The notes beneath the pieces are model-generated. The model had not been told where the DNA came from and did no database searches. It saw only the letters and a program-made list of their open reading frames with translations. A DNA stretch of 64,000 nucleotides, taken from NCBI GenBank assembly GCA_026387965.1, contig JAPLKR010000103.1, positions 529-64,528 of the forward strand, written 5' to 3'. Source of the DNA: Fusobacteriota bacterium (GTDB lineage Bacteria; Fusobacteriota; Fusobacteriia; JAPLKR01). Of the stretch, positions 1,162 to 24,935 are shown one piece after another; positions within the stretch are counted from its first letter, which is position 1; each line of letters starts with the position of its first letter. The position numbers and the translations under genes are program-made.

Positions 1162-2814
1162 CTACGACAATCCACTGATGACACCGCCGTTATTTACATC
1201 CATTCCACACGCAGCGGGTGTTTTTGGTAGTCCAGGCATATCTATGATTTTTCCCATAAACACAACCACAAAGCCTGCGCCTGCTGAAAGCGAAACATCT
1301 CGAGCAGTCATCGTAAAATCTTTTGCACAGCAGTGTTCTGAGTCTACTCCCGAAAAGCTCTTTTGGCTTTTTGCAATACATATAGGAAGTTCTAAGTACC
1401 CCCACTTTTGAAAAATTTCAAGTTTTTTCAAAGCAAGTTCTGAGTACTCTACTTTTGCCGCTTTATATACATTATGCGCTATAATTTCAATTTTTGCCTT
1501 TAAATCTGAAGATTTTGCACTGTATAGAAAACTACATCGCTTCTTCATATCAGCAAGCTTAACTACTTTTTTAGCAAGATCGATACATCCGTCCCCTCCA
1601 TCCTTATATCCTGTAGAGAGTGAAAATTCTACCGAGCACTCACGTATTAATTTTTCAATAAGCATTAAATGCTCTTCAGTATCAGTCTCAAATTTGTTTA
1701 ATGCAACAACAATTGGGATGTCGAACTGCTTTAAATTCTCAATGTGCCGACGTACATTTTCAAACCCTTTTATCAAACTCTCGTGACTCATTTCACCTAA
1801 ATTATCGCTTCCATGGAAATGAATGGCCCTAAGAGTGGCTACGAGTACGACAACAGAGGGAGATATGCCCATCTGTTGACACTTAATATCAAAGAATTTC
1901 TCAGCGCCAAGATCTGAACCAAACCCAGCCTCCGTAACAGCGTAGTCACTATAAGCCATAGCCATTTTAGTGGCTAGAATAGAGTTACACCCATGGGCAA
2001 TATTGGCAAATGGTCCCCCATGAATGATGGCAGGCGTATTCTCCGTAGTCTGTACAAGATTAGGTTTTATCGCCTCTTTTAGAAGCAAAGCTACCGCTCC
2101 CGAAGCATTCAAATCATCTACATAGAGTGGTTCGCCTGACAAATTAGTTGCAAAAATGATTCTCCCTACTCGAGATTTTAGTTCAAAAAGAGATTGACTT
2201 AAACAGAGAATAGCCATAATTTCTGTAGCGACGCTGATTTGAAATTTTTCCTCTCGCTCTGGCCCGTTAAGCTTCCCGCCTTTGCCAACGCTAACATCTC
2301 TTAAGGCTCTATCATTCATATCCATACATCGTTTAAAAAATATTTGCGTTGTATCAATATTTAAGGCATTTCCTTGATGAAGGTGATTGTCAATCATCGC
2401 TGCAATAAGATTGTTTGCGCTTGAAATGGCGTGGATATCCCCAGTAAAATGTAAATTAATATCTTCCATGGGAAGTACTTGAGAGTGTCCACCCCCTGTT
2501 GCTCCCCCTTTAAGACCAAATACTGGACCAAGTGAAGGTTCCCGAAGTGCCACAATGGATTTTTTCCCTAATCTGTTAAGTCCCAAAGAGAGACCAATCG
2601 AGACTGTGGTTTTTCCCTCTCCAGTAGGGGTTGGAGTGATTGCTGTAACTAATATCAACTCCCCTATATGCGTACTCTGTTCAAGTGCAGTCAGCTCAAT
2701 TTTTGCCTTATATTTACCATAGTGTTCAAGAAACTCTTTAGAAATACCTGCTTTTCTAGCAATATCCTTTATAGTATGCATCTCGCACGCACTTGCAATT
2801 TCAATATCTGTCAT
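1162..2814 (-). CDS. fhs: Formate--tetrahydrofolate ligase (formyl-THF synthetase).
   Basis: 550 aa with FTHFS hallmarks: PTPAGEGKTT P-loop region, ...GGGHSQVLPMEDINLHFTGD.... Start set at MTDIEIASACEM (ATG at 2814). The upstream Met at 2868 looks spurious. Confidence 0.9.
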   Translation of the reverse strand: MTDIEIASACEMHTIKDIARKAGISKEFLEHYGKYKAKIELTALEQSTHIGELILVTAITPTPTGEGKTTVSIGLSLGLNRLGKKSIVALREPSLGPVFGLKGGATGGGHSQVLPMEDINLHFTGDIHAISSANNLIAAMIDNHLHQGNALNIDTTQIFFKRCMDMNDRALRDVSVGKGGKLNGPEREEKFQISVATEIMAILCLSQSLFELKSRVGRIIFATNLSGEPLYVDDLNASGAVALLLKEAIKPNLVQTTENTPAIIHGGPFANIAHGCNSILATKMAMAYSDYAVTEAGFGSDLGAEKFFDIKCQQMGISPSVVVLVATLRAIHFHGSDNLGEMSHESLIKGFENVRRHIENLKQFDIPIVVALNKFETDTEEHLMLIEKLIRECSVEFSLSTGYKDGGDGCIDLAKKVVKLADMKKRCSFLYSAKSSDLKAKIEIIAHNVYKAAKVEYSELALKKLEIFQKWGYLELPICIAKSQKSFSGVDSEHCCAKDFTMTARDVSLSAGAGFVVVFMGKIIDMPGLPKTPAACGMDVNNGGVISGLS

Positions 2815-2873
2815 GTTACCCCCAATATAATTTGAATTTATTTGAGCATATCGGCAAACACCGTGCACATCAA

Positions 2874-4133
2874 TTATTTTACTTTTATAATATCTTCTAA
2901 TCGCGTCGTATAATGTGGTGACACGCTATCGCGTGTTAAATGCTCGGATAACTCACTAACTGAACTAGCAAGTTCAATAGAGTTAGCAAATTTTTGATTA
3001 ACCTTATCGAGTGTTTTCATTAATTCCTGTTTTTTATGTTCAAGCACTTCATCTATAGGATCAAATAGAGAGTTTTGTATCACATATTTTTCTCGAATAC
3101 CTGAAAGAATAATCCCAGCTCTTTTGTACGTTAGATCTACTCTAAAAAGTTTTCTAAGAGAGTCTAATACAGAGTGCGTTATAAACAATGTATTGTTGGT
3201 AGCGTTAAATGTGATTTCTTCAGTACCAGCAAAATACATCTCTTCAAATCTATTCGTTGAAATAAAAAGTGTCGCTGTAGTAGCAAAAGAGTTTTGATTT
3301 CTAAGCTTTTCACAGACTCTTTCACAAAACTTTGACACTGCTATCTCAAGCTTTTCAATAGTTGTAATTGGTTTAGAAAAGCTTCTTGAGACCATAATTT
3401 GTTTTTTACATCCTATATCTTCGAACTTAATCACTGGCACCCCATTAAGTTCTAAAATAATTTTTTCTAAATTAACAGAAAATAAACTTTTTAAGTTTTT
3501 ATAATCAGTATTCTTAAGCTCTTTTACTGTTAAAATATGATATTTCACTAACTTTTCAAAAGTTTTCTTTCCAACCCCCCATACATCTACCGCTGAAATT
3601 TTTTCATATATTTTATCTCGGGTTGCACTGTCAAAATCATAAATATTACATAGTCCATTAAATCTTTTCGGAAACTTCTTAGCTAGATTTGCAGCCAACT
3701 TAGCTTCCGTTTTTGTCTGTGCTATCCCAATAGAAATAGGAAGTCCTATCCACATCTGAACTCTTTTAATCGCATCTTGGCACCGTATTTCGATCTCCTC
3801 AACAGAAATACCACTAAAGTTTAAGAAACACTCATCAATAGAGTATATTTCCTGTATAGGAGCAAATTCTTTTAATATCGTCATAACTCTTTTAGACATG
3901 TCTGCGTAAAGCGCATAATTGCTCGATATCGCAATAATTTTATCGTTAAATTCAGCTTTAACTTGAAAATATGGGGCGGCCATCTTTACCCCAAGTAGTT
4001 TAGCTTCGTTTGAACGAGAAACTACACACCCATCATTATTTGAGAGCACAACCACAGCTTTGAAATTAAGATGTGGACTAAAAACACGTTCACAACTTAC
4101 ATAAAAATTATTACAATCAACCAAAGCAATCAT
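2874..4133 (-). CDS. umuC: Y-family translesion DNA polymerase (UmuC/DinB family).
   Basis: N-terminus MIALVDCNNFYVSCERVF... is the classic UmuC/Pol V start. 419 aa. It overlaps the upstream S24 peptidase gene by 4 nt (ATGA coupling). Confidence 0.85.
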   Translation of the reverse strand: MIALVDCNNFYVSCERVFSPHLNFKAVVVLSNNDGCVVSRSNEAKLLGVKMAAPYFQVKAEFNDKIIAISSNYALYADMSKRVMTILKEFAPIQEIYSIDECFLNFSGISVEEIEIRCQDAIKRVQMWIGLPISIGIAQTKTEAKLAANLAKKFPKRFNGLCNIYDFDSATRDKIYEKISAVDVWGVGKKTFEKLVKYHILTVKELKNTDYKNLKSLFSVNLEKIILELNGVPVIKFEDIGCKKQIMVSRSFSKPITTIEKLEIAVSKFCERVCEKLRNQNSFATTATLFISTNRFEEMYFAGTEEITFNATNNTLFITHSVLDSLRKLFRVDLTYKRAGIILSGIREKYVIQNSLFDPIDEVLEHKKQELMKTLDKVNQKFANSIELASSVSELSEHLTRDSVSPHYTTRLEDIIKVK

Positions 4134-16581: not shown

Positions 16582-17780
16582 TAATTACTTTGATGGAGAA
16601 ATGAAAGATGTATTAAATAATTATATACTACTTTCTGCCGTAAAAATGAGAAATCAAAAGTATCTGTTAGCCATTCGTGATGAACTCATGCTTTCAATAC
16701 CATTTATGATCTTTGAGCCCTTTTCCCTAATTATTGAGATTTTCCACTACCAGGAAGGTTGCCTCTTATTCATCGTTTATTTGTTGGAAGTTTTGATATT
16801 TATATTAATATGCCTGTTAACGTTACCTATCAATTAATGAGCATTTATTCGTTGAGAGAGTTGCCTACCGACTTGCCAAAAATTATAAAACACTTCAACC
16901 TTTAGCTGCCGGTGCAACTGCTTTTTCAATTTTTATGATGGTAATGCCCTTTTAAAATGATTCCATTCAAAATATTGTTGGCATTGAATACCATTTTTCT
17001 GTTGAGTGAATACCTATAAATATTTTAGGTAGTGGTGAGATGCTTGTGCCCATTTTATTTGCGATGCTTTCCACTGAACTATATCGTTTTTTGTCTATAA
17101 AAAATTACATTATAAATACCAGATAGTGTGCCTCCTGCAGTTTTTCAGTCATTTTCTGTTCTAGTTCCTGCATTGGCAGTCATTGTCGTATCCTGGTTAA
17201 TAAAAATGGTAATTATAGTAACACCATATATTAATCTTTTAAATATTATTCGAGAAATCGTTGCAAAACCATTAGTCTGGGCAGGTGGGTCTTATCTTGG
17301 AGAATTACCCTGTGCATTTTCAAAATATGTACTGTGAGCTGTTAGTAATCACTGGACTGGACCCAATATTAATTACATTGTCTGATTAATACAGAGTCGC
17401 CGCATTACATGAACTACCTCTTCCCAATATCGTTACCAATTCATTTGCAGATATTTTTGTAAATTTTGGTGGATCAGGATGTCAATTTGGTTTAACAATA
17501 CTACTATTATTTAGAACGATAAGTCAACAACATATACAAATCAGATTCTTAAGTTTTGGGGCTTGTTAATTTTATATCAACAAACGATTAATGTTTTGTA
17601 TCCCTATCGTGTTAAATCCAATGATGATGATTCTATTTATATATTACTCCCCTGGTTATAACAACTGTAACTTATTGGGCAACTTATTTGGGATTGCTCA
17701 CTCATCAAACAAGTGTTATTGTACCTTGAACAACTCCTATTTTATAGGACGTCTATATTTTTTATCTATTTTAGTGTAGC
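16565..17780 (+). pseudogene. PTS lactose/cellobiose-family EIIC (ChbC-like) pseudogene with multiple frameshifts and in-frame stops.
   Basis: Fragments in three frames match ChbC blocks in order: MKDVLNNYILLSAVKMRNQKYLLAIRDELMLSIPFMI; IPDSVPPAVFQSFSVLVPALAVIVV (compare ChbC [23 protein letters not shown]); IPIVLNPMMMI (compare LPIIMNPVMFI). The fragments are separated by stops and frame changes. Confidence 0.7.
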
Positions 17781-17825
17781 CTATCCAGTTTCCAATATTG
17801 ATTATCCTTAGTCTATTTTAGAAGC

Positions 17826-18486
17826 AACCATATATATTAACAGGTCTCCATGCAGTAACCTTTCAAGATATCCCTCGAAGGAAATTCAATTATTTCACTC
17901 ATGCCACACTTCTTGATCAAGTTGAAATTGTACGTAATTCATATATAGGAAAGAACGTTTTGATTAAAGGCAATATTATTGTTGGTGACAACACTCTTAT
18001 TGACAATGGTGCTATGATTGGAAATAATGTCGTTATTGGAAATAATTGCAAAAACCTAATCTATTGTATCTTTGAAGAAAATTCTACTATCGGTGATTTT
18101 TCGACCATCAACCACTGCGCAGAAATTGAAGTCATCTTGTTTGAAAAAGATGCGTTAGCAAACTATATGGAAATTCAAGGTATTGTGGTAAATACACTGA
18201 TATAGGAGCAGGAATATTATTTAGTCCCCTCCGTTTTGATGATAAAAATGTAATGCACAATATACATGGCGAGAAAATTAAACCAAAAAACTATGCTAAT
18301 GCCGGATTTGTTGGCGATTTTTTTAGGACTGCCGTTAATGCAGTGCTTATGCCTGGAGTTACGGTAGGTTCACGCTCACTTGTTGGGGTCAATGTTGTAT
18401 TAGAAAAGGATTTAGATCGCAATAAATCTATTTTTGTTAAACAAGAATTAGTTGAAAAAAATTGGAACGAAGAAAGATATGGGTGA
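17826..18486 (+). pseudogene. Remnant of an NDP-sugar pyrophosphorylase. The left-handed beta-helix (hexapeptide) C-terminal part is present, the N-terminus is missing, and it is frameshifted.
   Basis: ...NSYIGKNVLIKGNIIVGDNTLIDNGAMIGNNVVIGNNC... continues in another frame as ...ANAGFVGDFFRTAVNAVLMPGVTVGSRSLVGVNVVLEKDL. No nucleotidyltransferase domain and no start codon. Confidence 0.55.
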
Positions 18487-18493
18487 TAATATG

Positions 18494-19614: not shown

Positions 19615-20910
19615 CTACTTACTAAACATCATAAATACTAGATTTGCAACAGATATTGCTGCCAGAATCCACATTACACTATTCACTTCTTTCGTATTAC
19701 CTACAAATATTTTGACAACAACATAAAGAATGAATCCAAAGCTAATTCCCGTGGTTATACTATAAGTAAGTGGCATGATAATGGTCGTAAAAAATGCTGG
19801 TATAGCATCTTCTAGATTAACTAAATTAACTCTATTTATATTTTTAAACATAATAATACCTACAATCACGAGCGCTGGTGCTGTTGCAAATGCAGGAACT
19901 ATCGAAATAATAGGTGAAAAGAAAAGTGCAATGAGAAAGAAAAGACCCATGAAGAGTGCTGCCAGACCTGTTTTGGCTCCTTCTGCAATTCCAGTTGCAG
20001 ACTCCACAAACGTTGTTGCTGAAGAGCTTCCAATGAGTGATGCGCACGTAGTTGAAAGGGCATCTACAAAAAGAATTTTCTCAATATTTTCAATTTCACC
20101 TTTTTTATTATAAAGCTTACCTTCTATTGAACACGCCATAGCTGTACTTGCTGAGTCAAATAGATTTACAAATACAAATGAGAATATGGCTCCAATAAAT
20201 CCCCAATGAAGGGCAGCTATAATATCTAAATGTAAAAATATAGGTCCAATAGATGGTGGCATAGCTATAATATGCGTCGGAAGTGCTGATTGTTTAAAGA
20301 TAATACCAAGAGCTGTTGCTATCAAAATTCCATATAAAATAGAGCCTTTCACCCCTTTAATCATAAAAAATATTATTACTAACAAACCAATTAATCCAAT
20401 GATTAATCCCGGTGTAAATTTACCCATACTCACAATCGTTGCATCATTTCCTGTAATCAACCCCATGGATTTTAAACCAATAAAACATAAGAATAACCCT
20501 ACTCCTGCAGGAATGCTTGCTTTAAATCCTTCTGGAAGAGAATATATCACCATTTCACGCACTTTGAAGAAAGTCAAAATAATAAATATTACCCCAGATA
20601 TAAATACAATTCCAAGAGCAGTTTGCCAAGGTACTTTTCCACTCACAACTAACGTGTAAGCAAAGAATGCATTCAGTCCCATCCCAGGAGCAATTAAAAA
20701 TGGCACATTTGCAATAAATGCTACTAGAATACAACTAATAATAATAATCAAACATGTCGCCGTAATTAATGCATTAAAAGGCATACCTGTTGCCGACAAT
20801 ACCGATGGATTAACAAAAATAATATAAGATGCTGTTAAAAATGTTGTAAGAGCACCAATTAACTCCTTTTTTACTGTGGTATTTTTTTCTGCCAACTTAA
20901 ATAGTGACAC
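19615..20910 (-). CDS. pbuG: NCS2-family purine permease (guanine/hypoxanthine permease, PbuG/AzgA-like).
   Basis: 12-TM NCS2 protein. VSLFKLAEKNTTVKKELIGALTTFLTASYIIFVNPSVL is a PbuG-type N-terminus. Start reassigned to GTG 20910, preceded by GGGGGAA. The annotated Met at 21006 adds a nonsense leader. Confidence 0.8.
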   Translation of the reverse strand: MSLFKLAEKNTTVKKELIGALTTFLTASYIIFVNPSVLSATGMPFNALITATCLIIIISCILVAFIANVPFLIAPGMGLNAFFAYTLVVSGKVPWQTALGIVFISGVIFIILTFFKVREMVIYSLPEGFKASIPAGVGLFLCFIGLKSMGLITGNDATIVSMGKFTPGLIIGLIGLLVIIFFMIKGVKGSILYGILIATALGIIFKQSALPTHIIAMPPSIGPIFLHLDIIAALHWGFIGAIFSFVFVNLFDSASTAMACSIEGKLYNKKGEIENIEKILFVDALSTTCASLIGSSSATTFVESATGIAEGAKTGLAALFMGLFFLIALFFSPIISIVPAFATAPALVIVGIIMFKNINRVNLVNLEDAIPAFFTTIIMPLTYSITTGISFGFILYVVVKIFVGNTKEVNSVMWILAAISVANLVFMMFSK

Positions 20911-21168
20911 ACTTCCCCCTAATTTTTTTATTTCATAATTTACGCTACTGTAATAATAGCATAAATTATATTGAGAACAAAATAAATTACCCCTATTGTA
21001 ACTCATTTTCTATACTTGACCAAGAATATAGTTAAATAAATATTCCTCATAGTAGAAAAAAATAATTTGAATGTCATGTAGCCAAATGGTAATGATACTA
21101 GTCAAATTTCTCCCCCATTAAGCTCATTTTCAACATATTTTCAACTTACTTTCTTTCTGAATTTTAAT

Positions 21169-21205
21169 AAAAAAAGAATCTGAAATAGCGAACTATTTTA
21201 GACTC
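21169..21205 (-). terminator. Intrinsic terminator forming the expression platform of the purine riboswitch.
   Basis: Minus-strand RNA GAGUCUAAAAUAG-uucg-CUAUUUCAGAUUC: a 13-bp stem with one mismatch, one G-U pair and a UUCG loop, then U7. It sits 31 nt 3' of aptamer P1. Confidence 0.55.
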
Positions 21206-21235
21206 TCAATTATCAAATAATTAAAGAATTGAAAA

Positions 21236-21308
21236 TAACTCATAGTCCAGCACTTTACGGTTGCTAGGTAGAAACTTATGGACCATATCTCCAAATTTAT
21301 ATAAGCTA
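21236..21308 (-). ncRNA. Purine riboswitch aptamer, guanine/hypoxanthine class (C at the specificity position).
   Basis: Minus-strand RNA UAGCUUAUAUAAAUUUGGAGAUAUGGUCCAUAAGUUUCUACCUAGCAACCGUAAAGUGCUGGACUAUGAGUUA. P1 is UAGCUUAUA/UAUGAGUUA. Conserved junctions UAUA, AUAUGG, GUUUCUACC, CCGUAAA and GAC-UAUG all match the B. subtilis xpt G-box. Confidence 0.85.
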
Positions 21309-21409
21309 ATAATATTTATATCTTAAGTATAACATTAACCATTTTCGGATACAATATATTTTTTGACCAATTTATGCGAATTAATTCACCATTGTTCACT
21401 CTTTACCCA

Positions 21410-21895
21410 TCATATCAAACCACTTCCATTGTTCACTTCAGAAAAATGCTTTCTTAAACTCTTTATAATCGCTACCATAGATTCTTCCTCTATTAATTCC
21501 CTACTAAAATTCTCAACACCCTCATGATAAGGGAAATTCTCTCGCATTTTAGGATACCAATCTCCCGGACGGGGTAAATCGAGTGTTTTTCTAGGTATCA
21601 TATGCAAGTGCAGATGCATAACCGTTTGACCTGCACATTCGCCATCTTGAATGGTTAAATCAAATCCCTCTGCGTTAAATAAAGATTTAAATTCCTCGAC
21701 ACATATTTGTGCTAAATCAATCAGTTCATGTCGAAGTTCTGAATTTAACTCTAAAAAGGATATATAGTGATGTTTTGGCACAATCAAACTATGCCCCGGT
21801 AGAATGGGGGCAATATTATAGATTACTCTAAAATTTTCACTTTCATAAAACTGATTATTCAGAATTTCTTCACTACAAAATACGCATTTCTTCAC
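21410..21895 (-). CDS. HIT (histidine triad) family hydrolase.
   Basis: HLHLHMIPR histidine triad and CVFC N-terminal motif. 161 aa. Confidence 0.7.
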   Translation of the reverse strand: MKKCVFCSEEILNNQFYESENFRVIYNIAPILPGHSLIVPKHHYISFLELNSELRHELIDLAQICVEEFKSLFNAEGFDLTIQDGECAGQTVMHLHLHMIPRKTLDLPRPGDWYPKMRENFPYHEGVENFSRELIEEESMVAIIKSLRKHFSEVNNGSGLI

Positions 21896-22404: not shown

Positions 22405-23568
22405 CTAGAAAGCGTAGTTAAATCCTGTATAGATTTGCCCACCATAGTTAGTAGAAGAGTTTCCAGCATGATTTTGAATCATCGAAGTGCCTAAGCTATT
22501 TGTATAGTATTTTGCATATACCTGAGCATTTGTTGTCCAAGTTAAGCAATGGGTAATATTCATTGTATAAGCGATACCTGGGTAAAAACAAAGTTTTTGA
22601 GCTCCAGGCGTCGCTTGTGTCGTTTGAATACTATCATTACTTATTGTATTGAAAATATAGTAACGTGTATCAAAGTTCAGGTTAAGTCCTGGTATAGATG
22701 CAACATTATAACTTAACATTGCAGGATGAATAATGATATCATTGTTCGTCTCGTTATTTACAGCATTTGAAAGGATAATGTAGTTGTCATTAGCCTGTTG
22801 TAATTGAACCCCTGTTCCCAATGTGAACTGAGAATTTACTTGTCTTGTATACATAGGGAAAGCTGAGAAATACTCTCCATTTGCTCCATTCCAATTTGCT
22901 CCAGCAGTATTATAACCAGAAGATTGGTTAATTGCTGTTTGTCCATTAGCACTTCCTATTACTTGAAATGTTAACGCAAGTCCATATGTGTTTGCTCCAT
23001 TAATATATGTTAAGTTTGGTGCTATTTGGTAACCAGTTACTAATACTGGAGATATATTATATGTTCCAGTTGTTGTAGTATATTGACCATTCGATTGAGA
23101 TCTCCAGTTAAGGTAGCTTACGTTCAATGAAGTTGTTAGTCCATTTTGGAAGTTATATGCACCTGTCATTCCCCATGTGTTTAACATTACATTTTGGTTT
23201 CCTGCACCCGCTGTATTTGCATAAGCACTATTAATCTTACCTGTGAAATCTGTTGCACCATTTAAACTCCAAGTCCAATTTCCAGTTTTATAGTTTAAAT
23301 TTAGTGCATTTGGGTTATCAAATGCAGGTGATCCACCTTGATCTGGCTTAACTCCACCCATAACTGAAACATTTCCTGTGAAATCTGGTACAGTATTTAC
23401 AGGGGATGCTGCTACTGCTGCTGCATTAATTGTATTTGCTGCTGCTGCAGTATTTGATTCTGTAACGATATTTTGTGAAATTGTGTTTGCCATTGGAGCT
23501 GTTACACCTGCTAATGACACTGCAGCTGCTATTGCAAAAATCGCTGTTACTAATAATTTTTTATTCAT
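22405..23568 (-). CDS. Outer-membrane beta-barrel (porin-like) protein, copy 1: signal peptide, C-terminal aromatic residue.
   Basis: Signal peptide MNKKLLVTAIFAIAAAVSLA. Alternating amphipathic Thr/Asn/Tyr-rich strands. Terminal ...YTGFNYAF (C-terminal Phe typical of BAM substrates). Strong RBS AAGGAGA. Confidence 0.6.
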   Translation of the reverse strand: MNKKLLVTAIFAIAAAVSLAGVTAPMANTISQNIVTESNTAAAANTINAAAVAASPVNTVPDFTGNVSVMGGVKPDQGGSPAFDNPNALNLNYKTGNWTWSLNGATDFTGKINSAYANTAGAGNQNVMLNTWGMTGAYNFQNGLTTSLNVSYLNWRSQSNGQYTTTTGTYNISPVLVTGYQIAPNLTYINGANTYGLALTFQVIGSANGQTAINQSSGYNTAGANWNGANGEYFSAFPMYTRQVNSQFTLGTGVQLQQANDNYIILSNAVNNETNNDIIIHPAMLSYNVASIPGLNLNFDTRYYIFNTISNDSIQTTQATPGAQKLCFYPGIAYTMNITHCLTWTTNAQVYAKYYTNSLGTSMIQNHAGNSSTNYGGQIYTGFNYAF

Positions 23569-23834: not shown

Positions 23835-24935
23835 TTAAAAGCTATAATTAAATCCCGAATAAATTTGTCCTCCATAGTTTGTAGAAATATTACCCTTCCC
23901 ATTTGGAGTCTGACCTATTTGACCATTCATATTATTAGTATACCATTTACCATACACTTGTGCATTTGTGACCCATGACAGACTCGAGGTAATACTCTTC
24001 GTATAAGCTATCCCTGGGTAGACACAAACTCTTGTTGAACCTGCTATCGCTCCGATATTGGTTTGCATTGGATCATTTTTAACCGTATTATTATAATAAT
24101 AACGGGTATCTAAATTCAGATTCAATCCTGGTATAGAAGCAACATTGTAACTTAACATTATAGGATGGAGAATAATATTGTTATTTGAATCATTATCAAC
24201 TGCTTGAGTCAAAATCAAATAATTATCGTTAGCTTGCTGAATTTGAACCCCAGTTGAATATGAGAAAGCTGTACTCACTTGGTTGGTATACATTGGAAAA
24301 ATCGAAAATGACTCGCCGTTTTGACCATTCCATGTTCCTGTTATCCCATTAGGAGGGAATCCTGCAGAACTAGATACGGCTAATATTCCATTTGAGCTTC
24401 CTAGAACTTGATAATACATTGCTAATGCATAAGTGCTATTTCCATTGACATAAGTCATTGTTGGCGCCAATTGATATCCCGTTACGAGTACTGGGAAAAT
24501 TCCAGCTGCTGGTGATGAAGATTGTGATCTCCAGTTAAGATAGCTTACATTCATCGATGTGGTCAATCCATTTTGAAAATTATAACCACCTGTGAATCCC
24601 CATGTATTTAACATCGTATTTTGGTTACCTGCGCCCATGGCATTTCCGTAACTGCTATTTGACATCCCTGTAAATTCTGTTGCACCATTTAAACTCCAAG
24701 TCCAGTTTCCTATTTGATAGTTTAAATTTATCGCGTTTGGATTGTCATATTGAGGTGATTTCCCTTGATCAGGCTTAATTCCACCCATAACTGAAACATT
24801 TCCTGTAAAAGGAAATGTAGATGAATTTCCTGCGGCTACAGTCGAATTAATAGTGTTGGTAGTTACAACCACATTGTTATTTGCCCCTGCATTTTGCGAA
24901 ACTGTTGAAGCAGAGGACGAGCTTTGAGTTATCAT
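23835..24935 (-). CDS. Outer-membrane beta-barrel paralog, copy 2. N-terminally truncated: no signal peptide, no RBS. Possibly a pseudogene or silent cassette.
   Basis: About 55% identical to copy 1 after the first 40 aa (FTGNVSVMGG.KPDQG.SP..DNPNA.NLNY..GNWTWSLNGAT.FTG ... GFNYSF). An in-frame TAG lies immediately upstream of the first Met. No SD-like sequence. Confidence 0.5.
   Translation of the reverse strand: MITQSSSSASTVSQNAGANNNVVVTTNTINSTVAAGNSSTFPFTGNVSVMGGIKPDQGKSPQYDNPNAINLNYQIGNWTWSLNGATEFTGMSNSSYGNAMGAGNQNTMLNTWGFTGGYNFQNGLTTSMNVSYLNWRSQSSSPAAGIFPVLVTGYQLAPTMTYVNGNSTYALAMYYQVLGSSNGILAVSSSAGFPPNGITGTWNGQNGESFSIFPMYTNQVSTAFSYSTGVQIQQANDNYLILTQAVDNDSNNNIILHPIMLSYNVASIPGLNLNLDTRYYYNNTVKNDPMQTNIGAIAGSTRVCVYPGIAYTKSITSSLSWVTNAQVYGKWYTNNMNGQIGQTPNGKGNISTNYGGQIYSGFNYSF

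Follow-up and report, generated by a model that had tools for sequence, protein, structure and literature searches.

Riboswitches of the guanine-I class contact their ligand through U22, U47, U51, and C74 (PMC9295807, PMC10556655, PMC2018637), and variants with altered specificity have been grouped bioinformatically inside the guanine riboswitch collection (PMC9295807, PMC10556655). Adenine switches carry C74U (PMC9295807, PMC10556655, PMC2018637), xanthine-II RNAs have U51G and two inserted nucleotides in J2-3, and guanine-II RNAs have one inserted nucleotide in J2-3, with J3-1 also altered in both of the latter classes (PMC9295807). In the 8-oxoguanine riboswitch, an ON switch that precedes a gene for 8-oxoG deaminase, U47 is deleted (PMC10556655). 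In the classical guanine OFF switch, P1 has the role of an anti-anti-terminator (PMC2018637). A more elaborate arrangement is that of the tandem guanine-PRPP riboswitches (ykkC subtype 2b), which form a logic gate (PMC5912903).

The system closest to the one analyzed here is the pbuG riboswitch of Bacillus subtilis, which lies 5' of the gene for the hypoxanthine/guanine permease PbuG. The pbuG gene is a known guanine riboswitch target with a terminator platform, in which an RF00167 element with C74 serves an AzgA-family NCS2 permease, and our locus resembles it in these respects. The two also share their OFF logic, a ligand-stabilized P1 that acts as anti-anti-terminator together with a rho-independent terminator; for our locus this logic comes from computed folds. 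The differences are that the host is an uncultured member of the Fusobacteriota, that the helices are AT-rich and weaker, and that the leader is longer by about 250 nt in the part from the terminator to the start codon.

The xpt-pbuX riboswitch of B. subtilis is the structural reference for the guanine-I class. Our aptamer matches the guanine-I consensus in J1-2, in J2-3 (GUUUCUAC), and in J3-1, and its junction set is presumably identical to that of xpt itself. It also has the GG of L2, the CC of L3, and U22, U47, U51, and C74 (numbering according to PMC9295807 and PMC10556655). The xpt-pbuX system is unlike ours in its genes, one for a phosphoribosyltransferase and one for a xanthine permease that belongs to a different branch of NCS2, and in the sequences of P2 and P3. 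Unlike the tandem guanine-PRPP riboswitches, our locus has only one aptamer, followed by a terminator of its own, and no ykkC-like element at E ≤ 10.

We analyzed a 64-kb stretch of DNA (referred to here as the window), in which a canonical guanine-I (G-box) riboswitch is predicted, with high confidence, to control the gene of an AzgA/PbuG-type permease by transcription attenuation. All features described below lie on the minus strand unless stated otherwise. Elements of this well-known class are routinely detected with Rfam, and the present one is real but ordinary; its importance is mostly one of annotation. Guanine riboswitch control of PbuG-type purine uptake, which has been well studied in Bacillus, would extend with the same terminator and anti-terminator logic to a deeply branching, uncultured lineage of the Fusobacteriota; the start of the permease is fixed at GTG 20910; and a spacer of about 250 nt is the only oddity.

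Orthologous loci were compared on the metagenome contigs L001 to L006, whose permeases are 84% identical to that of the window, and on L007 (79%). The order HIT-family gene, riboswitch, permease is kept in the orthologous loci, where RF00167 scores 89.5 and 85.6 bits. The leaders of L001/L004 and L007 are like that of the window in synteny, in the extended -10 element, in the top of the terminator stem, and, according to the folds of L001 and L007, in anti-terminator logic. They are unlike it in that their helices are stronger, the spacer is absent, and the U-run lies about 26 to 31 nt from the start codon.

The aptamer and its class

RF00167 was the sole Rfam family at gathering score in the 64-kb window. 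The cmscan match covers the complete model (positions 1 to 102) at 21324..21223 with 83.2 bits (E = 1.7e-13), well over the gathering score of 37, so that the check proposed in the earlier note on this DNA came out in its favor. That note had read a G-box aptamer at 21308-21236, and each element that it listed was recovered when we reread the sequence against the RF00167 match. The guanine-I (purine) aptamer thus placed at 21236..21308 is supported by cmscan, by covariation, and by conservation relative to L001.

P1 pairs UAGCUUAUA (21308-21300) with UAUGAGUUA (21244-21236) in the nine base pairs previously proposed, two of which are G·U. It is followed by J1-2 (UAA, 21299-21297) and by P2, in which AUUUGGA (21296-21290) faces UCCAUAA (21282-21276) beneath loop L2 (GAUAUGG, 21289-21283). 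J2-3 (GUUUCUAC, 21275-21268) is 8 nt long without indels and contains U47 at 21274 and U51 at 21270. P3 is built from CUAGCAA (21267-21261) and GUGCUGG (21253-21247) and is capped by L3 (CCGUAAA, 21260-21254). The 2-nt J3-1 (AC, 21246-21245), placed by the cmscan alignment and the sequence, ends in C74 at 21245, the position that confers specificity through its pairing with guanine or hypoxanthine (PMC10556655, PMC2018637). The consensus GG and CC for the loop-loop contact are present in L2 and L3, respectively, and we infer that this tertiary contact forms.

The helices were assessed in 11 RF00167 aptamers located 5' of homologous permeases: that of the window, those of two metagenomic orthologues, and those of eight genomes. 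Among the matches listed in a permease-based search of genome contigs, the best relatives were 51% identical, and they served for aptamer covariation, not for comparison of the platform. When the Rfam structure was imposed on the 11 sequences, 91.6% of the cells were standard pairs and both sides had changed in 16 of 22 pairs, whereas pairing fell to 31 to 42% in controls in which the partners were slid by 1 to 3 columns. P1, P2, and P3 are therefore well supported; failure of P2 and P3 to form, which the earlier note had named as evidence that would count against its reading, is not what the alignment shows. The window does have irregular positions. P2 contains a U·U mismatch and, at its first pair, an A·A (6 of the 11 aptamers lack a pair at this position), and the loop-closing pair of P3 is A·G, making the window the sole sequence of the 11 that is unpaired there. 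Its score of 83 bits nevertheless lies inside the range of the other aptamers (65 to 96 bits).

In a comparison of the window with L001, identity reaches 89% for the aptamer and 76% for the permease coding sequence, whereas third codon positions stand at 48% and the intergenic DNA 5' of the aptamer at 54%. Because the aptamer is so much better conserved than third positions and intergenic DNA, these values indicate that it has been under strong purifying selection.

All junction and loop nucleotides of the aptamer are canonical in the cmscan alignment and in the sequence, including U22, U47, U51, and C74, and the junctions are free of insertions, in agreement with the previous assignment to the guanine type from the C at the discriminator position. 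Since none of the departures described for variant classes is present in the window, we assign the aptamer, on its sequence, to the guanine-I class and not to the adenine class or another variant. Adenine riboswitches are usually ON switches. An adenine riboswitch is ruled out here by the C, not U, at position 74 (21245) and by the OFF platform. Xanthine-II and guanine-II are likewise out, J2-3 being exactly GUUUCUAC with U51 in place and without insertion, and J3-1 being AC, as is the 8-oxoguanine riboswitch, given that U47 (21274) is kept, the platform is of the OFF type, and the gene that follows encodes a permease and not an 8-oxoG deaminase. A core that conforms to the guanine-I consensus also argues against membership in 2'-deoxyguanosine classes I to III. 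The specificity variants known within the guanine riboswitch collection (PMC9295807, PMC10556655) give some reason to consider adenine, 2'-deoxyguanosine, xanthine, or 8-oxoguanine as the ligand, but the nucleotides and platform just listed speak against each of them, and genes for PbuG-type permeases are typical partners of guanine-I aptamers; we regard it as extremely unlikely that any of these four is the ligand. The aptamer would accordingly be expected to bind guanine or hypoxanthine.

Promoter, terminator, and predicted switching

A candidate extended -10 element, TGtTATACT, is located at 21326..21334. When the window is aligned with L001, L004, and L007, the motif TGnTAnAnT does not vary (columns T87, G88, T90, A91, A93, and T95). 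The candidate -35 hexamer, TTGTAT at 21349..21354, lies 17 nt further 5', and L001 and L004 have TTGTGG at the aligned position; TTGTAT agrees with the consensus at 3 of 6 positions and so was not listed by a consensus scanner. Transcription would start near 21320, about 12 nt before P1. Immediately 5' and on the same strand is a gene of the HIT (histidine triad) family (21410-21895), an order that is kept in L001, L004, and L007. As no evident terminator separates this gene from the promoter of the riboswitch, its transcripts might continue into the riboswitch.

Downstream of the aptamer, minimum-free-energy folds contain a candidate intrinsic terminator at 21169..21205. Its 5' arm (GAGUCUAAAAUAG, 21205-21193), UUCG loop (21192-21189), and 3' arm (CUAUUUCAGAUUC, 21188-21176) are followed by a U-run of seven residues (21175-21169). 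The hairpin and the U7 are where the earlier note had placed them, with two adjustments: the gap from P1 is 30 nt and not 31, and the 13 positions of the stem are not all base pairs, as they comprise 11 Watson-Crick pairs, one G·U, and one A·C mismatch. The hairpin has a computed energy of -8.8 kcal/mol, compared with -13.9 and -15.0 kcal/mol in the relatives, and all switch helices of the window are weaker than theirs. A consensus terminator scanner returned no terminator-like site in the riboswitch region, the hairpin at 21205-21169 included, presumably because of the A·C mismatch and the low G+C content.

The platform is conserved among the three distinct sequences that could be compared (window, L001, and L007). 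The base of the stem differs in sequence yet remains paired: the window has GAGUCU/AGAUUC, L001 has GAGUUUG/CAAGCUC, and L007 has GGGAUUA/UAAUCCC. The stem top, AAAUAG-UUC(G)-CUAUUU, is conserved in the alignment of the window with the orthologous leaders, and GAG(C/U)UAUU at the 3' end of P1 is common to the aligned leaders. A scan for additional orthologues with the pattern GACTATGAGNTATT...AAATAGTTC.CTATTT retrieved only the L004 contig from the metagenome collection and nothing from the genome collection.

To represent a transcription intermediate, the transcript was folded up to the terminator loop, with the 3' arm not yet made. In the window, L001, and L007, the minimum-free-energy fold of this intermediate is the anti-terminator (-11.3, -16.5, and -14.5 kcal/mol, respectively, for the 3' portion). 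In the window it is a helix of 10 bp between a 5' arm at 21232..21241 (GAGUUAUUUU) and a 3' arm at 21190..21199 (AAAAUAGUUC), stacked on a small internal hairpin; taken alone, the duplex amounts to -2.8 kcal/mol. The 5' arm has 6 nt in common with the 3' strand of P1, and the 3' arm consists of the terminator 5' arm and three loop bases. An anti-terminator between the P1 3' strand and AAAAUAG had been proposed before; that pairing holds, and its 7 bp turn out to be a subset of the longer helix. P1 and the anti-terminator compete for these six nucleotides and are therefore mutually exclusive.

When P1 is formed in the folds, the terminator forms. In the equilibrium fold of the full-length window leader with P1 forbidden, the terminator is retained and no anti-terminator appears. 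Folding the leader with and without P1, as the earlier note had suggested, thus gives the terminator in both cases, and the ON state would depend on cotranscriptional kinetics; in the window, the anti-terminator is seen in the intermediate only. The OFF switch that the earlier note had proposed is in line with a hairpin that shows compensatory changes in the orthologues and with the anti-terminator fold of the intermediate in all three sequences. Together, the folds and the alignment support an OFF platform composed of a terminator and a competing anti-terminator, as in xpt and pbuG of B. subtilis, and transcription would be expected to end at this terminator.

We propose the following sequence of events. 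The promoter with the conserved extended -10 would give a transcript starting near 21320. At high purine concentrations, guanine or hypoxanthine would pair with C74 (21245) and lock P1 (21308-21300 with 21244-21236), so that the hairpin of the terminator (21205-21176) could fold before the U7, and transcription would stop ahead of the permease gene (OFF). At low purine concentrations, the P1 3' strand and the next four U residues (21241-21232) would instead pair with 21199-21190 in the 5' arm and loop of the terminator, and the polymerase could then continue across the spacer of about 250 nt and reach the ribosome-binding site and GTG 20910 (ON).

The permease gene and the spacer

The gene downstream of the leader (19615..20910) encodes an NCS2 permease of 431 amino acids. 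It contains the domain PF00860 (Xan_ur_permease; E = 6.8e-37, 127.5 bits), its closest solved relatives are the adenine/guanine permeases AZG1 (PDB 8irl; E = 8.8e-63) and AZG2 (E = 2.2e-48), and its homologues are named as members of the AGZA family or as PbuG guanine/hypoxanthine permeases. We conclude from these matches that it belongs to the AzgA/PbuG branch of NCS2, with a purine as its putative substrate. The best database match (P0001) is 100% identical over 431 amino acids and carries the name "MAG: NCS2 family permease [Fusobacteria bacterium]."

Two start codons are in frame, GTG 20910 and an ATG at 21006 that lies 32 codons further 5'. The homologues are 427 to 432 amino acids long, and their alignment begins within two residues of GTG 20910, which is therefore the true start. 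A Shine-Dalgarno sequence, AGGGGGA, is found at 20914..20920; L001 has AGGAGG at equal spacing to its start codon. The N-terminal extension of 32 codons from ATG 21006 was rejected: it has no counterpart in the homologues, it is not preceded by a Shine-Dalgarno sequence, and its composition is like that of translated AT-rich noncoding DNA. The earlier note had arrived at the same GTG, with which both the 431-residue P0001 and the homologue alignment agree, but it erred in calling ATG 21006 annotated. That ATG merely opens the longest open reading frame, and the public protein P0001 already begins at the GTG.

Between the terminator and the ribosome-binding site lies an AT-rich spacer of about 250 nt (20921..21168; G+C content, 25.6%), a stretch that the earlier note passed over. 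It appears lineage specific, being absent from the alignment with L001, L004, and L007, and it extends the distance from the U-run to the start codon to 258 nt (21168-20911), compared with the much shorter distance in these relatives. A hairpin of 13 to 16 bp at 20969-20935 stands just 5' of the ribosome-binding site, and the spacer as a whole folds somewhat better than shuffled sequence (z-score, -2.77). The two junctions of the spacer both resemble AAAAUU(C)AG when compared by eye, which hints at a short duplication.

A scan of 20850-21450 with Rfam at E ≤ 10 gave no credible match in the spacer and no ykkC/PRPP element. The three matches that overlap the spacer are to eukaryotic snoRNA or miRNA families (E = 1.1 to 3.4), far below their gathering scores and at chance level, and a second riboswitch was rejected on these grounds. 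A repeated mobile element was also discarded as an origin of the spacer, as blastn detected the spacer once in the window and not at all in the other loci searched, and no terminal inverted repeats were seen by eye. Promoter-like matches in the spacer, among them TGGTCA-16-TACAAT (21022-20995) and ATGACA-17-TACTAT (21077-21049), number 7 against 6.2 expected, the chance rate for such AT-rich DNA; transcription independent of the riboswitch is conceivable from such sites. None of these results points to a function of the spacer, although it could matter for the tightness of control. We consider it unlikely that the spacer was inserted recently and brought with it a promoter or another regulatory RNA not described before, the hairpin at 20969-20935 included. 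If so, the permease would be escaping guanine control, or adding a layer to it, while the helices weaken, and we would be looking at a riboswitch in the course of being rewired.

Two readings other than transcription attenuation deserve to be weighed against the structure of this leader. The switch might act on translation by occluding the ribosome-binding site, and UUCUC does pair weakly with GGGGA of the Shine-Dalgarno sequence in the full fold of the spacer. The ribosome-binding site is, however, about 250 nt from the aptamer, and in the relatives it lies 3' of a complete hairpin and U-run. No segment of the aptamer is complementary to it, and the alternative pairing that has been conserved opposes anti-terminator to terminator, all of which makes translational control very unlikely. 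The other reading keeps the aptamer intact and uncouples the permease from it, partly or wholly, through a 258-nt insertion with its own promoter or other control, the helices slowly degrading. Much of what is unusual about the spacer could be taken this way, namely, its absence from L001, L004, and L007, the promoter-like sites at 21022-20995 and 21077-21049, and its folding z-score, as could the weakness of the terminator, P1, P2, and P3 relative to those of the relatives. The promoter-like matches nevertheless occur at the chance rate, and the 89% identity of the aptamer to that of L001, compared with about 48 to 54% at neutral sites, points to selection and argues against outright decay. 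The nucleotides that make ligand and tertiary contacts are all intact, and the bit score falls within the range of other aptamers. Uncoupling is thus improbable, and attenuation of the permease transcript by a guanine-I riboswitch remains the reading that we prefer.

Related loci and other genes of the window

RF00167 matches were found 5' of homologous permeases in 8 of 20 listed loci from Firmicutes, Fusobacteria, or spirochaete-like genomes. In Caldanaerobacter (L055, 1240-1430) and Thermotalea (L022, 1113-1369), a Purine match is directly followed by one to the Guanidine-I family (ykkC), both 5' of homologous AzgA-type permeases, and this tandem arrangement appears to fit the published guanine-PRPP logic gate (PMC5912903). 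Another locus, L060, has a 3' flank similar to those of L055 and L022 but no match at gathering score. A permease homologue with 58% identity on L008 occurs in a different context, after a two-component system. Its 300-nt upstream region (2702-3001) has no RF00167 match at gathering score; therefore, some close permease homologues are not riboswitch controlled.

Elsewhere in the window, the plus-strand region 16600-18490 contains only short open reading frames, among them a hexapeptide-repeat transferase that is apparently split into two pieces (17960-18205 and 18253-18486). Pseudogenes could account for this, as could frameshift errors in the assembly of the genome from a metagenome.

Two adjacent minus-strand genes, 22405-23568 and 23835-24935, encode paralogues of 387 and 366 amino acids that are 64% identical and end in FNYAF and FNYSF, respectively. 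Pfam searches returned no match for either one, and an NCBIfam search returned none for the paralogue at 22405-23568, the one tested. Apart from about 25% local similarity to an unannotated 423-amino-acid gene product of L001, no further similarity was seen. The paralogue at 22405-23568 has a signal-peptide-like N terminus, and in sequence both proteins look like outer membrane beta-barrel proteins.
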